Assembly (NCBI GenBank): GCA_021162185.1
Contig: JAGGZC010000049.1
Coordinates: forward strand, 1-26,617
DNA length: 26,617 bases
Direction: 5' to 3'
Source of the DNA: Candidatus Woesearchaeota archaeon
GTDB taxonomy: Archaea > Nanobdellota > Nanobdellia > Woesearchaeales > JAGGZC01
The translations under genes and the position numbers were made by a program. How positions within the stretch are numbered: position 1 is the stretch's first letter; each line of letters opens with the position of its first letter. Positions 1 to 4,824 of this stretch are shown piece after piece. Under the pieces are notes generated by a model that had not been told where the DNA came from, did no database searches, and worked only from the letters and a program-made list of their open reading frames with translations.

Positions 1-15
1 AGAAATAGATAATTT

Positions 16-87
16 TTCGCGCGTCCTCGTGACTTCTGTGGTGTTCGGCTTACGCCTGCGCTACTCGACCCTGCGCTTCGCTTGAGG
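16..87 (+). repeat. GC-rich hairpin module preceding attC-like site 1
   Basis: Starts CGTCCTCG like the module at 1263 (CGTCCCTCG) and ends GAGG-GTATAAC like the other two copies; contains GCTTACGC and GCTTCGC loops. Confidence 0.45.
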
Positions 88-167
88 GTATAACACGGAT
101 TTTACGGTTTCACTTCGTTCCACCTCAACTCGACTTCGTCGAGCTTCGTAAAATCCGAATGTTATAC
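88..167 (+). repeat. attC-like recombination site 1 (80 bp, intact)
   Basis: GTATAAC (88-94), A, CGGATTTTACG (96-106) ... CGTAAAATCCG (147-157), AAT, GTTATAC (161-167). The arms are perfectly complementary apart from two unpaired bases (AA, 158-159). Internal hairpin CTCGAC-TTC-GTCGAG at 129-143. Confidence 0.75.
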
Positions 168-193
168 ACAATTGGCTCCGGGGAGCCTGAAAC

Positions 194-208
194 AAAAAGA
201 TATTTAAA
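194..208 (+). promoter_or_regulatory. Archaeal BRE/TATA promoter for the methyltransferase cassette
   Basis: AAAAAGA-TATTTAAA; AGGAGG ribosome-binding site at 231-236, 6 nt before ATG 243. Confidence 0.5.
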
Positions 209-242
209 GGATCACTAATTAATTTATGTAAGGAGGCAAAAA

Positions 243-818
243 ATGGCAAACTTTCAAGCTAAGATGTTCAATAGAAGAGCTTCTGCCCCTAAAAACAAAC
301 CAGACCAGATTATAGAAGCTATCGCATTAAGGCCTGGTCAAAGTGTTGCAGATATTGGTTCAGGAGGGGGTTATTTTTCTCTGCGATTTGCCAAGATAGT
401 TGGAGAAGAGGGAAGAGTTTATGCAGTTGATACAAAACCAGAATTTTTAGAGTATGTTAAAAATAGTGCCAAAGAAAAAGGGTTGAATAATGTTATACCA
501 ACACTTGTATCGGGAGATAAATTAGGTTTACCTGAAAAAAGTTTAGATTTGATATTCATGCGTAATGTCACCCATCACCTACCAAACCGAGTAAAGTATT
601 TTAAGAGTCTAAAACGATTTTTAAAACCTGATGGAAGAATTGCTATCATTGATTATAAAAAAGGTAAAATTCTCACCTTCCATAGATTATTTGGACACTA
701 CGTTCCTAAGGAAACTATCATTCAAGAAATGAAAAAGGCAGGTTATCTGCTGGAAAAGGAATTCAATTTTTTACCAGAACAACATTTTACAATTTATGCA
801 GTGAAAAATGAAAGATAA
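243..818 (+). CDS. Class I SAM-dependent methyltransferase (UbiE/Methyltransf_31-like)
   Basis: Motif I VADIGSGGGYFS, acidic end of strand 2 (VYAVD), post-II LDLIFMRNVTHH; AGGAGG RBS. Confidence 0.9.
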   Translation: MANFQAKMFNRRASAPKNKPDQIIEAIALRPGQSVADIGSGGGYFSLRFAKIVGEEGRVYAVDTKPEFLEYVKNSAKEKGLNNVIPTLVSGDKLGLPEKSLDLIFMRNVTHHLPNRVKYFKSLKRFLKPDGRIAIIDYKKGKILTFHRLFGHYVPKETIIQEMKKAGYLLEKEFNFLPEQHFTIYAVKNER

Positions 819-877
819 AAGTATAATTTGCAATGTTCCAAATAAAAACATATAAAAAGAGAAATAATAATTAATCT

Positions 878-1054
878 ATGAAAGAAGGAAACAAAATGTG
901 TATGAGTAATAAAACAGAAGGCATAATTGCCATCTTAGCAGCTTTCTTCGTGTTGCTCTCAGCAATGCTTAACCCAAAAATTTCCGTAGGATTGGCTATT
1001 GTTTTCCTTGTTGTATTAAGTGCATACAAGTTATATCAAAGTAAAACAAAATGA
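878..1054 (+). CDS. Small two-TM membrane protein (58 aa; alternative starts 896/902), missing from ORF track
   Basis: Hand translation: MKEGNKMCMSNKTEGIIAILAAFFVLLSAMLNPKISVGLAIVFLVVLSAYKLYQSKTK*. Two hydrophobic helices; the stop overlaps the GAGGTGA RBS of the next gene. Confidence 0.7.
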   Translation: MKEGNKMCMSNKTEGIIAILAAFFVLLSAMLNPKISVGLAIVFLVVLSAYKLYQSKTK

Positions 1055-1064
1055 GGTGACAAAA

Positions 1065-1256
1065 ATGGAAAAAGACAAACTGCGAAAAATTGTTGTTGCT
1101 ATGCTTTCGGTAATAGTAACAATAAGTGTAATAGCATATCTCAATACACTACCGAAACCAGTTTTTGAGAAACCATACTGGATCAGTATTGTCGCATTGC
1201 TGTTCATGTATTGGATAATTTTCATCAACTGGTATTCCAAACGTAAAATAAAATAA
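1065..1256 (+). CDS. Small two-TM membrane protein (63 aa)
   Basis: GAGGTGA RBS at 1053-1059 favours ATG 1065 over GTG 1020; two hydrophobic segments, basic C-terminus. Confidence 0.7.
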   Translation: MEKDKLRKIVVAMLSVIVTISVIAYLNTLPKPVFEKPYWISIVALLFMYWIIFINWYSKRKIK

Positions 1257-1390
1257 GCATGACGTCCCTCGCTAACTCTTCGGATTGCTTCGCAATCCTC
1301 GTCTCTGTCGGGAGTGTATAACAGCGGATAAAGGGGAATTAGAGATTTCCCCAGATTGCCTTATGGCACTTCGTTTATCTGCAATATATT
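1254..1390 (+). repeat. Composite repeat 2: hairpin module plus degenerate attC-like site
   Basis: TAAGCATG (1254-1261, overlapping the stop codon), hairpin GGATTGC-TTC-GCAATCC (1282-1298), GTATAAC (1316-1322), GCGGATAAA pairing with TTTATCTGC (1374-1382, one mismatch). The right core is decayed to AATATATT. Confidence 0.6.
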
Positions 1391-1432
1391 CAATCCGCCT
1401 TTGTCTGCTAATTTGTAATTCATTCAATTCAG

Positions 1433-1481
1433 CCGAAAATTTTAAATATCAAATGTGATATATATCTAACATAGAGTTAGA
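1433..1481 (+). promoter_or_regulatory. BRE/TATA promoter with downstream palindromic operator
   Basis: CCGAAA-A-TTTTAAATA (1433-1448); inverted repeat TCTAAC-ATAGA-GTTAGA (1465-1481) near the expected transcription start, upstream of the DUF2178-XRE pair. Confidence 0.55.
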
Positions 1482-1507
1482 ATAATATAACAATATAATG
1501 TGAGAAA

Positions 1508-1879
1508 ATGGATCGGAAGCAATTTGCAATATATGCGGCCTTGGTATGTGCAATAATGGGAGCAGTGGTTGGATATGGAGTATCTAAAGGAAATGCATTA
1601 TTGCCAGTGATTGCATTTAGTATAGGAATAGTTTTGATAGTATTGGGTAAGAGAGGTGTTAAAGAGGTTATGGAGGATGAAAGGACTCACAGAATAAGTG
1701 AGAAAGCATCGAGAAGAATATACCAGGTTTTTGTAATGGGTGCTGCATTAGCTGGTACAATATTGATAGCGCTAAACAAGCATATAGAAGTAGGTTATAC
1801 ACTGGCTTTTTCAGCGTGTGCCTTATTGGTTCTTTACTTAGTGCTCTACAGTTACTACAATAAGAAAGCTTTTGAGTAA
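1508..1879 (+). CDS. DUF2178-like membrane protein
   Basis: Four hydrophobic segments and the characteristic DERTxRISEKASR motif; adjacent to an XRE regulator, a pairing common in archaea. Confidence 0.8.
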   Translation: MDRKQFAIYAALVCAIMGAVVGYGVSKGNALLPVIAFSIGIVLIVLGKRGVKEVMEDERTHRISEKASRRIYQVFVMGAALAGTILIALNKHIEVGYTLAFSACALLVLYLVLYSYYNKKAFE

Positions 1880-1899
1880 GTAAATAAAGAGGAATTAAA

Positions 1900-2100
1900 A
1901 TGAGGACACGGATCAAAGAATTTAGAGCAAGATACAACATGACACAGGAAGAGTTAGCAAAAAAAGTAGGGGTTAGAAGAGAGACTATCGTTTTCTTGGA
2001 GAAAGGAAAGTACAATCCATCCCTTAAATTGGCATATAAAGTGGCTAAAGCATTGAACACAACAATTGAGGAGTTGTTTATATTCGATGAGAATGATTGA
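1900..2100 (+). CDS. XRE-family helix-turn-helix transcriptional regulator
   Basis: [45 protein letters not shown]; GAGGA RBS upstream. Confidence 0.95.
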
Positions 2101-2106
2101 GGTCTT

Positions 2107-2234
2107 TAAGCATGCTCGGCGGATTTCTCAGCTTACGCTTCAATCCTAACTTAGCTTGGGGGTATAACAGTGGATAAAAGGCTTGGCTTCACCCCAAACC
2201 TACTTCGTGGCTTTGCGTGTTCCTATCTTTTATA
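2107..2234 (+). repeat. Composite repeat 3: hairpin module plus truncated attC-like site (array boundary)
   Basis: TAAGCATG (2107-2114), GGATT...AATCC stem, GTATAACAGTGGATAAAAG (2162-2180), nearly identical to copy 2 (GTATAACAGCGGATAAAGG). Only a partial partner arm (CTTTTAT, 2227-2233) and no GTTATAC. Confidence 0.55.
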
Positions 2235-2298
2235 GTGGTAATAAGTTAACAAGACATCCATGCGAAAAATATATAAAGACTATGGGCACTTCAGTATT

Positions 2299-3072
2299 AT
2301 GGCTAGATTTGGGGAGTTATTAGAATCCATATATGAACCATTCAGGACAAGCATAATTGTTCCAGGTATGTTTTTTTCACTTCTACTTCTATTAGTCATG
2401 GACATATTTGACTCTCTACTAACACCTCTAAGCTACACATTACAAGGAGCTATTCTTGAAATAATATTGCTCTTGATCGCTGCTTGGTTCTCAGTAACTA
2501 TTTATGGAACCATGATCTACTTCTATGAAAAAAGAAAGGAAAAGCAGGGATTCTTTAAAAAACTAGTAGAGATTCTCAAGACAAGTTCCCCTAAGTTGTT
2601 CGTGATAGGAATAGTATACGCAGTCCTTATGATGATCTCTTCATTAATACTCTTCCTAATAGCAATGATTGGCCTATGGCTAGGTAAAATCACAATAATA
2701 TTAACAATAATCATTGGAATAGTGGTAATAATTGGTGCAATGTTTATATTATCATACTTATCCCTAGAAGAGCTATATGCATTTAGATTAATCCTACTAA
2801 GAAAAAAGAACATTGGAGAGGCGATCTCTAAGAGTCTAGGAGTGAGGAAAAATATATGTATGGGCACATCTGCAGTTGTGGTAATAGGAATAATCTATAT
2901 ATTATTCTTTTCAATTCTTAATGGTATATTTGCATATCCATTGCTAAGAGGAATCAATGCTTATTATCCAATATATGTAACATTTTCAATGCTTATTAGT
3001 ACATTCCTCTCATCTGCGTTTATAATAATCCTAACATCAATCTCTATTAAGATTCATCCAAAGAGAGCATAG
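2299..3072 (+). CDS. Multi-pass membrane protein of unknown function
   Basis: About six hydrophobic segments. The ORF opens at 2260, but a TATA-like AATATATAAAG about 25 nt upstream favours leaderless ATG 2299. Confidence 0.7.
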   Translation: MARFGELLESIYEPFRTSIIVPGMFFSLLLLLVMDIFDSLLTPLSYTLQGAILEIILLLIAAWFSVTIYGTMIYFYEKRKEKQGFFKKLVEILKTSSPKLFVIGIVYAVLMMISSLILFLIAMIGLWLGKITIILTIIIGIVVIIGAMFILSYLSLEELYAFRLILLRKKNIGEAISKSLGVRKNICMGTSAVVVIGIIYILFFSILNGIFAYPLLRGINAYYPIYVTFSMLISTFLSSAFIIILTSISIKIHPKRA

Positions 3073-3967
3073 TTTCTATTTCTCTTCTCAGATTTTTCGC
3101 GATAATTGTATTGTGTATTATCAATAAGTCTTCATCATTCTTTGTAAAGGCATTTATACTTGGATTATAACTCCCAGTAACAATTGTTTTGTTATCAATT
3201 ATAAAGAGCTTTGAGTGTATTAAAAGTGGAGAATCCTCTAATACTATTTTAGTATACCTTGCTAGTAGCACTGCTTCTTTATTGTTAGCACTACTACTCT
3301 CTATAATCCCAGTAATGCTTATATTCTTCTTTGCAAGTGTTCTTAGTTCCTCTATGATTAATGGATCACTAAGCACATATAGTTGGACATATACTTCTTG
3401 CTCTGCTTCTCCAAGTGTTTTTAATAAGAGCCACCTACAAGTAGGGGATGGTGTGAAACATATTTCTATGGAAGACTCGTTATTATGGACTATGTAATAG
3501 GGACTGATTTTAAGGTTTTGGAGCATGCCTTGAAAGTTTTTTTCAAAGATAGAGGATATTCGCGAGGAATTAAGATTTACTACTATGTTGAACGTATCCC
3601 TATTAGGAATAGTAGGGTTATAACTCCCAAGAACAATGCTTGTGGAATTATAGCAATATTTGTGGTGCATTAAGCCATCACTTTTTCTTGGAATTCCCAT
3701 ACCCCAATAATTTGATTCATCCACTATTAATGATTTATTTTTCAGCATGGTTATTGCTAGAGGATGATTTATACTATAAAATGCACACTTACTAGAATCA
3801 TCCCTAAATATTGGTATGAAGAAGTTTAGGCATTCATCATTGATACATGGATGAATAGCTATGCTTATATTATCATAAAACTCCACATTCCTTTCATTAC
3901 TACTAGTCCTTGTTACCAGCATGCTTAGAATAGTTATGGATAGTATTATGACTTCTAGCTTTTTCAT
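3047..3967 (-). CDS. Secreted or membrane-anchored phospholipase D/nuclease superfamily protein
   Basis: N-terminal signal/anchor. Two HKD-type motifs: HHKYCYNS...GSYNPT (Asp missing) and HSKLFIID...GSYNPS (canonical). Confidence 0.85.
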   Translation of the reverse strand: MKKLEVIILSITILSMLVTRTSSNERNVEFYDNISIAIHPCINDECLNFFIPIFRDDSSKCAFYSINHPLAITMLKNKSLIVDESNYWGMGIPRKSDGLMHHKYCYNSTSIVLGSYNPTIPNRDTFNIVVNLNSSRISSIFEKNFQGMLQNLKISPYYIVHNNESSIEICFTPSPTCRWLLLKTLGEAEQEVYVQLYVLSDPLIIEELRTLAKKNISITGIIESSSANNKEAVLLARYTKIVLEDSPLLIHSKLFIIDNKTIVTGSYNPSINAFTKNDEDLLIIHNTIIAKNLRREIETMLSLDES

Positions 3968-3983
3968 GTGAAAGGAATTATAT

Positions 3984-4565
3984 TTATGGTTTAACCCGTT
4001 TTCTTCTTTTTTCTCGGAGAAGTTTTATCATTCCTGCAAGTTTTTCAATACTATTAGCAGCTCCAAACAATGCATTCCAATGAGCATCCCGAAACACTTC
4101 TAGAAGTATATCAACCTCTCCATAGCTCTCTCTTTTCCCAGGATTAATCCCTAGAAGTTTTCCTGCAAGAGAGATCTCACCCCACAAAAAATGTTTCAAT
4201 ATATAGATGTTTTCTCCATGATATTTTTCTATTATCCTCGCAGGGTCTTCTTGTTCAAGCATTGCTCCAAGAAAGTCTGACACATATTTCTCTAGATATA
4301 TTGGTATGATCATGTCTTTATTTTTCATTCTTTTTGTTTTCTTTATTCTTAATCTGTCTTTAAAGATTTTTTTTAACAAAAACTCTGCGAGCCAAGAGGT
4401 AGGAGTTTCAAGCATATAGTACTCTTTCTCAGAATCAAAACCTGTTCTTCTTAACTCTTTCTTTAATCTTTGTTCTAATAATTCTAGAAAGCAGTCCCTA
4501 CAATAGCATCTATCAATATAATCCAAGCATATAACTGCTTTTCTCCCACAGCTAAAACATTTCAT
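3984..4565 (-). CDS. Zinc-finger protein resembling a degenerate TtuA/Ncs6 N-terminus
   Basis: MKCFSCGRKAV...YCRDCF zinc ribbon followed by a basic helix; no PP-loop SGGKDS; only 193 aa. Confidence 0.55.
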   Translation of the reverse strand: MKCFSCGRKAVICLDYIDRCYCRDCFLELLEQRLKKELRRTGFDSEKEYYMLETPTSWLAEFLLKKIFKDRLRIKKTKRMKNKDMIIPIYLEKYVSDFLGAMLEQEDPARIIEKYHGENIYILKHFLWGEISLAGKLLGINPGKRESYGEVDILLEVFRDAHWNALFGAANSIEKLAGMIKLLREKRRKRVKP

Positions 4566-4608
4566 GGTTTTGGATTCCTTTCCTTATTTTTAATTATTTT
4601 TATAATTC

Positions 4609-4624
4609 TTTTCAATATTGAAAA
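4609..4624. promoter_or_regulatory. Perfect 16-bp palindrome TTTTCAATATTGAAAA
   Basis: Read directly; an identical core recurs at 18278-18293. Regulatory role is inferred. Confidence 0.4.
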
Positions 4625-4721
4625 ATTTTTATCAAAAACTTTAAATATCAGTTAATCTACTACAGGGTGGTTAACAATTACTTTAGAGTGATTAATTATT
4701 TATGCTGCCCTCACCTCTTTC

Positions 4722-4752
4722 CCAGGGAGAAGCATTTCCTGCTTCTCCCTGG
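4722..4752. other. Perfect 13-bp stem / 5-nt loop hairpin in an intergenic region
   Basis: CCAGGGAGAAGCA-TTTCC-TGCTTCTCCCTGG; function unknown. Confidence 0.6.
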
Positions 4753-4824
4753 CCCATATTCCTCTCATTTCTTCTATGCATAATTAGAAGAATCCTTAGT
4801 TATAAAGCGGATTATTTACTCGCT

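Follow-up and report, generated by a model that had tools for sequence, protein, structure and literature searches.

The window analysed here, a stretch of 26,617 nucleotides, is an entire contig (JAGGZC010000049.1, GenBank assembly GCA_021162185.1) from the metagenome-assembled genome (MAG) of a Candidatus Woesearchaeota archaeon, an assembly of 690 kb in 86 contigs with a GC content of 35.6% and a completeness of 95%. Over its first 2.25 kb, small genes in one orientation are parted by three GC-rich islands (GC 0.45–0.54, against 0.19–0.40 in the DNA between them). The heptamer GTATAAC lies on the + strand at 88–94, 1316–1322 and 2162–2168, with its inverse, GTTATAC, at 161–167, and each of the three elements built around it directly follows the stop codon of co-oriented genes. 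An earlier, sequence-only reading of this DNA had described just such elements between small co-oriented genes, and had placed them in the tail of an integron-like cassette array in an archaeal chromosome. That placement stands up well: Bud32, gyrB and gyrA are encoded on the array-bearing contig and its GyrB is nearest (61%) to those of Woesearchaeota MAGs, so the array sits on an archaeal chromosome, probably of DPANN type. We consider it likely that positions 1–2251 make up the part of an integron-like gene-cassette array that lies farthest from the integrase, a non-canonical variant of the integron-type array and here probably a decaying tail.

The heptamer on its own is not enriched (7 occurrences where 3.65 are expected, a count attained by 12 of 100 shuffles). 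A 17-nt pattern taken from sites 2 and 3 served as the starting point and was run on contigs representing one genome per species; among the more than 119 loci listed, about 36 are members of the family described below and the rest are mostly chance matches. We aligned 34 members, all from genomes other than that of the window, and built from them a covariance model, R1. Although no window sequence is in it, R1 recovers all three sites, all on the + strand, and has no further significant match in the window or the remainder of the genome. Site 1 (84–170; 56.1 bits, E = 1.5e-10) is intact and attC-like, with a DNA fold of z = −3.2. It consists of a left box (GTATAAC, 88–94), a stem (96–106/147–157), two inner hairpins and a right box (GTTATAC, 161–167), which fold into an 8-bp outer pairing, a 2-nt bulge, an 11-bp inner stem and a terminal hairpin, and its stem departs from the family consensus through compensatory changes. 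The inverted 7-bp cores, complementary inner arms, unpaired bases and terminal hairpin that the sequence-only reading saw in site 1 are therefore all present, but their geometry is not that of a canonical attC.

The other two sites are less complete. Site 2 (1312–1399; 41.2 bits, E = 3.4e-7; nhmmer E = 3.6e-14) keeps the left box, the stem (1324–1334/1371–1381) and the interior, and has a degenerate right box in which ATTC replaces GTTA. Site 3 (2158–2251), the last before the chromosomal flank, is eroded: the R1 match covers 2158–2238 at 19.3 bits (E = 0.03), and the site has a left box at 2162–2168, a 16-nt insertion, a stem of only 7 bp and no stable fold (z = +1.6); a candidate right box, GTTAACA at 2245–2251, was read by eye. 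All three elements belong to one family, as expected of related palindromes, but sites 2 and 3 resemble site 1 chiefly in their left halves. The proposed decay from left to right, with site 1 intact, the right box lost from site 2 and site 3 eroded, is borne out. A "split hairpin" arrangement, with cassettes carrying complementary halves of neighbouring hairpins, was also considered and is rejected for the window, since site 1 pairs its 3' arm with its own 5' arm and not with that of site 2.

Upstream of every window site lies a GC-rich module of 45–70 nt (17–87, 1258–1315 and 2100–2161, all on the + strand), and about half of the family members have a comparable one, of 45–60 nt. The first belongs to the 3' end of a cassette, A, whose body falls to the left of the contig start, and ends in a CCCT...AGGG hairpin just 5' of the left box of site 1. 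Candidate roles for the upstream module are those of a terminator, of an RNA end and of an accessory binding site. Module 2 contains the hairpin GGATTGC-TTC-GCAATCC followed by TCTC...GGGA; it travels with cassette B (described below) in more than 25 metagenome contigs and is ~85% identical to a module in an Exilispira (Spirochaetota) MAG.

The family to which the sites belong is defined by its boxes and by a paired stem. Its consensus boxes are [G/A]TATAAC on the left and GTTA[T/G/A][A/G/C][T/C] on the right; TAAC and GTTA are present in 87–89 of 89 distinct members. Within the 34-member alignment these four inner box positions are invariant, and the outer three are paired in only about half of the sequences. 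Eight of the ten inner-stem pairs show changes on both sides, the fraction of paired cells is 86.9% (against 79.0% in shuffled alignments and 22–45% when partner columns are slid), and all five pairing measures lie above all 500 shuffles. The inner stem, 10–11 bp long, is maintained by complementarity, not by sequence. With outer box pairs excluded, G–T and A–C mismatches are equally frequent in the 89 distinct members (57 vs 59), which fits a DNA structure better than an RNA one and shows no strand preference; wobble-pair asymmetry in the same members, used as a test of which strand folds, gives no signal. The interior consists of two hairpins joined by conserved CCAAA and ACTTC linkers.

Like integron attC sites, the family thus combines inverse boxes with structurally paired inner arms. 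Both the family and site 1 carry the boxes R'' (RYYYAAC) and R' (GTTRRRY), whereas site 2 is without GTTA and site 3 is doubtful in this respect. The geometry differs. A canonical attC has spacers of ~5 nt on both sides and extrahelical bases that set strand choice; the present family has neither, its spacer being 1–2 nt on the 5' side and 5–6 nt on the 3' side and its stem having no bulge in the model. Also unlike attC are the two-hairpin interior and the frequent extra GC-rich module upstream. Of 151 genomes sampled from the window's own archaeal order, 41 have R1 matches, and further matches come from Asgard archaea, Thermoplasmata, anaerobic methanotrophic archaea (ANME-1), Methanoperedens, Archaeoglobi, Bathyarchaeia, Aenigmarchaeota, Chloroflexota, Nitrospirota, Thermotogota, the candidate phyla radiation (CPR) and others. 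Many genomes hold co-oriented arrays of family sites.

Between the window sites lie two cassette bodies, both on the + strand. Cassette B (161–1322), delimited by Pfam matches and homology edges, encodes an S-adenosylmethionine-dependent methyltransferase (243–818; Pfam) and two small membrane proteins predicted from open reading frames (ORFs) of 58 aa (878–1054) and 63 aa (1065–1256), and ends with module 2 (1258–1315) and the left box of site 2 (1316–1322). Cassette C (1400–2161) encodes a DUF2178 membrane protein (1508–1879) and an HTH_3 regulator (1900–2100), both identified by Pfam, and ends with module 3 (2100–2161). In five relatives the DUF2178–HTH pair has no flanking sites, and synteny there is therefore uninformative on mobility. 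The leader of cassette B (168–200), immediately after the right box of site 1, contains CAAT and then a GGCTCC-GG-GGAGCC hairpin; almost every copy of the cassette keeps this motif as CAATCGGCTTCGGGACGCC, and in relatives CAAT also comes after the attI-like GTTATAC. The 58-aa ORF behaves as an indel (899–1048 within 878–1054): many metagenome copies and several vent contigs join ~797–842 to 1062, with no site bounding the missing part.

Cassette B recurs in many genomic contexts. Homology to a Bathyarchaeia MAG (locus L100) opens exactly at GTTATA (161) and ends at 1384, taking in the methyltransferase gene, the small ORF, the module and the interior of site 2; at L100, cassette B is a solo insertion between two core genes, one for an RNA polymerase subunit and one for a flavodoxin-domain protein. 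In a Desulfurellaceae MAG, the methyltransferase gene stands immediately 3' of a family site. Relatives of the methyltransferase are encoded on 239 Joint Genome Institute metagenome contigs, and in the best 80 of these (methyltransferase identity 69–92%) we compared neighbourhoods and homology edges. The 0.9 kb upstream of cassette B falls into 38 clusters among 43 regions and the region past it into 35 clusters among 42, whereas the cassette's own downstream part forms a single cluster in 33 of 60. In 28 contigs the left homology edge lies at window position 155–161, and what stands before it is non-site DNA or one of many different site interiors; in 25 contigs the right edge lies at 1309–1339, where site 2 has its left box. 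One and the same cassette B body is followed by 12 or more different interiors, each complementary within itself. Other pairs of loci have an ORF and a complete site in common, with homology stopping at the right box. At one locus (L301), the site after cassette B has no interior at all, the left box GTACAAC being followed by 13 nt and then GTTATAT, as if stripped of its entire stem and hairpins.

The strain comparison called for by the sequence-only reading revealed a presence/absence difference. A hydrothermal-vent contig ~98% identical to window positions 2164–3437 lacks cassette C: the module of cassette B is joined directly to site 3 (joints 1301→2164 and 1325→2172), and 846 nt comprising the rest of site 2 and cassette C are skipped. 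In vent-metagenome assemblies, the chromosomal flank has a depth of ~5 and cassette parts have depths of 50–600. Sequence comparison thus supports cassette mobility well, and cassette B circulates widely in hydrothermal-vent communities. The idea that site-specific recombination supplied accessory genes here is upheld insofar as the cassettes are mobile (at L100, in the metagenome contexts and in the vent strain). Recombination that is still going on in this genome is doubtful, since the assembly shows no tyrosine recombinase and two of the three sites are degraded; the array most likely preserves past captures in a partly fossil form.

In 13 genomes of the order, a tyrosine recombinase gene lies 0.5–7 kb from the array, always on its upstream side and always divergent. 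The window's recombinase would therefore lie to the left of base 1, and by analogy with these relatives we expect the missing integrase past the contig start. The array-adjacent enzymes are 252–278 aa long. They score 210–217 bits on the XerA model NF040815, below its cut-off of 220, whereas non-adjacent paralogues score 258–272, and they reach 186–197 bits on the integron integrase model TIGR02249 (cut-off 265), with model positions ~180–235 unmatched. Aligned with three canonical IntIs, they are without the ...ALxxKYPNAGKEWAW... insertion, and none of the array-adjacent enzymes examined has it. An N-extended type (388 aa, 43% identical) lies directly upstream of, and co-oriented with, arrays at seven loci in bacteria and ANME-1. 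In a phylogenetic tree, 10 of 11 sampled adjacent enzymes form one clade (support 99/95) apart from the non-adjacent XerA paralogues (93/76), and this clade joins IntI and the N-extended bacterial and ANME type at 89/89. The adjacent enzyme is therefore related to both IntI and XerA and distinct from the housekeeping XerA of the order, and its grouping with IntI has moderate support.

These loci also contain candidate attI-like sites. Some 100 nt upstream of the recombinase gene, 9 of 11 loci of relatives have TAGNT-GTTATAC preceded by an inverted repeat. Two forms of such a region occur on contigs that carry cassette B. On contig L309 (680–725), a perfect hairpin, GTTTCCCGAA...TTCGGGAAAC, is followed by TAGT-GTTATAC beside a short, divergent integrase of the adjacent type, and the array that follows has cassette B in third place. 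On contig L353 (178–270), the end of an N-extended integrase gene is followed by three direct repeats of AAGTTCGTATAT, by GTTATAC and then by cassette B.

A cassette comprises one to three genes, usually a GC-rich module, and a terminal site of ~90 nt. In the mechanism that we propose, this site would work as a folded single strand, like attC. Strand exchange by a tyrosine recombinase would take place at G|TTA in the right box, with another such site or the attI-like site beside its own gene as partner, and the catalyst would be a short or N-extended (~390 aa) recombinase without the IntI-specific insertion, as in the relatives. In this genome the recombinase end is missing, whether severed where the contig starts or truly lost. 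Right-box exchange predicts a cassette B circle in which the 3' stem arm of site 2 plus G is joined to TTATACACAATTGG, and exchange at the left box predicts one in which module 3 plus GTATAA is joined to CAGCGGATAAAGG. With neither bulged bases nor an IntI domain to dictate strand choice, it is conceivable, if doubtful, that the system recombines both folded strands, with exchange at G|TTATAC and at GTATAA|C, so that gene bodies and hairpin interiors shuffle as separate units.

Several observations weigh against reading the locus as the end of an integron-like array. Neither site 2 nor site 3 has a proper right box. The search for an IntI-type recombinase that the sequence-only reading had suggested came back empty: no tyrosine recombinase (PF00589), XerA included, was found in the 95%-complete MAG, although such an enzyme is present in 112 of the 151 genomes of the order, and the lack could reflect an assembly gap or a true loss. 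Matches to the attI-like motif in this genome are not above chance (8 against 9.2 expected), and the window array is cut at base 1, beyond which the attI-like region would lie. The link between recombinase and array is positional only, and the moderately supported grouping with IntI comes from a midpoint-rooted tree. No circular junction was seen. The deletion in the vent strain and the right edge of cassette B both fall at the left box (1301–1335), not at the right box expected of integron-type exchange, and homology-driven deletion between conserved site halves could yield part of this pattern. In the part that was read of a pairwise scan of left breakpoints, breakpoints fall at both boxes, a result by which site-specific and homology-driven exchange are not separable. 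Exchange seems to occur at both boxes; one possible cause is that both folded strands recombine, another that conserved site halves undergo homology-driven events.

Other explanations account for parts of these data. Structured RNAs, transcription terminators at gene 3' ends, or dispersed repeats akin to repetitive extragenic palindromic (REP) elements or miniature inverted-repeat transposable elements would, like the elements here, be at home directly after stop codons, and the elements are GC-rich and include several hairpins of the CTTCG type. Yet a search of window positions 1–2300 against all Rfam families gave no match even at E up to 10, and the equal mismatch frequencies carry no RNA strand signal. 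The scatter through the genome that the sequence-only reading had set out as the mark of REP-like elements is not seen, the only copies being the three at this one locus. As gene-unit edges also fall at the boxes and recombinase genes are linked to the arrays in relatives, we regard an explanation without recombination sites as very improbable. A system resembling Xer and dif modules would act on double-stranded boxes, and its mobile units would be the gene bodies between inverted 7-bp boxes (GTTATAC...GTATAAC), with hairpin interiors as separate units. Such units would suit the extent of cassette B homology, which starts at the right box of one site and stops at the left box of the next site downstream, as well as the variety of interiors behind one body, the strain deletion that ends at left boxes and the Xer-like character of the adjacent enzyme. 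The stems, however, vary freely yet stay complementary, which points to a folded strand and not to sequence-specific duplex binding; the solo insertion at L100 includes a whole site, and many pairs of loci share an ORF and a complete site up to the right box. We think this explanation quite unlikely. Two known systems are close to the present one. In the integration of CTX phage by XerCD, an Xer enzyme without the IntI domain acts on attP as a folded single-strand hairpin that mimics a two-box core site; this and other Xer-exploiting elements are single phage or island integrations at dif, whereas the present system consists of cassette arrays with a dedicated, paralogous recombinase. The pdif modules of Acinetobacter plasmids are gene modules bounded by inverted Xer-type sites and found in many contexts, but their sites are 28-bp duplexes and not 90-nt hairpins and, unlike the present system, they are not known to have arrays beside a dedicated recombinase gene.

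The locus could also be an ordinary cluster of attC sites lacking integron-integrases (CALIN), with true attCs served in trans by canonical IntI enzymes from this or other organisms of the community and neighbouring Xer-like genes as bystanders. The definition of a CALIN asks for two or more attC sites spaced by less than 4 kb and for no integrase in the vicinity, and such integrase-less clusters are known from archaeal MAGs, those of Nanoarchaeota included (Ghaly et al. 2022, PMC9668308). The window, with three sites in 2.2 kb and an assembly without a recombinase, falls under this definition only if non-canonical sites count as attC. Its boxes match RYYYAAC and GTTRRRY at all but one position, a Hadarchaeota attC with GTATAAC and GTTATAC was recombined by IntI1, and the majority of the archaeal arrays reported are CALINs (PMC9668308). 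Methyltransferase and HTH_3 functions are typical of archaeal cassettes, and sites and cassettes common to archaea and bacteria, as found here, also mark archaeal CALINs (PMC9668308). Against this, the spacer geometry and conserved interior of the family are unlike the nine published archaeal attCs, which have the canonical TAAC-AAnTC-L'' geometry (PMC9668308). Arrays in 13 relatives begin at a recombinase that lacks the IntI domain and has its own attI-like site, the IntI insertion is in none of the adjacent enzymes examined, and in the one examined genome with three canonical IntIs (G045) the single family member lies near none of them. We therefore hold an ordinary CALIN to be unlikely.

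The comparison with integrons, above all sedentary chromosomal ones, supports a related, though not identical, organization. As in those integrons, the present arrays are rows of small genes, mostly promoter-less and in one orientation, and at the end of each stands an imperfect palindrome with AAC and GTT boxes and a stem maintained by its structure; relatives have a divergent recombinase gene and a candidate attI-like site where integrons have attI; and cassette B, like integron cassettes, has edges at G|TT and occurs as one cassette in many contexts. Unlike in integrons, interiors are apparently exchanged independently of cassette bodies. A complete integron also requires an adjacent IntI with its additional domain, which neither the window genome nor the arrays of relatives have, and the adjacent enzymes fall outside the order's XerA clade as well as below the XerA cut-off. 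Integrases in the earlier archaeal survey were defined by the IntI domain and only six were found in archaea; none of the present family's sequences is in its text or supplements (Ghaly et al. 2022, PMC9668308). A literature search on an Xer-type cassette platform in DPANN found nothing relevant. The new elements here are the mapping of cassette edges across many contexts, the strain-level presence/absence joint, the separate clade of adjacent enzymes and the apparent independent exchange of site interiors.

Elsewhere in the window, a repeat was observed at 4561–4645. A stretch of 45–90 nt from the gene-free interval 4566–4824 recurs at 72–96% identity on six other contigs of the assembly, and several of the order's genomes have it at 79–85% identity; it may represent a dispersed element of promoter, leader or small-RNA type.

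For this genome, the finding amounts to the truncated, partly decayed tail of an array. For the family it has a wider bearing: what defines integrons is an integrase whose special domain recognises the bulged bases of folded attC DNA, and similar gene capture here appears to run without that domain. The system has a different site geometry and is found in about one in four of the genomes sampled from a single DPANN order and in ANME, Bathyarchaeia, Asgard archaea, Chloroflexota, Nitrospirota and CPR. The methyltransferase cassette, with 239 metagenome copies in almost as many contexts, provides a ready test object. If catalysis is indeed the work of the adjacent enzyme, many archaeal CALINs in the literature may turn out to be complete platforms missed by current detection tools, and cassettes that pass between archaea and bacteria in vents and sediments would have a second vehicle. 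Should both folded strands indeed be recombined, it would be a simpler relative of the integron, bearing on the origin of IntI-type recombination from Xer-type enzymes.

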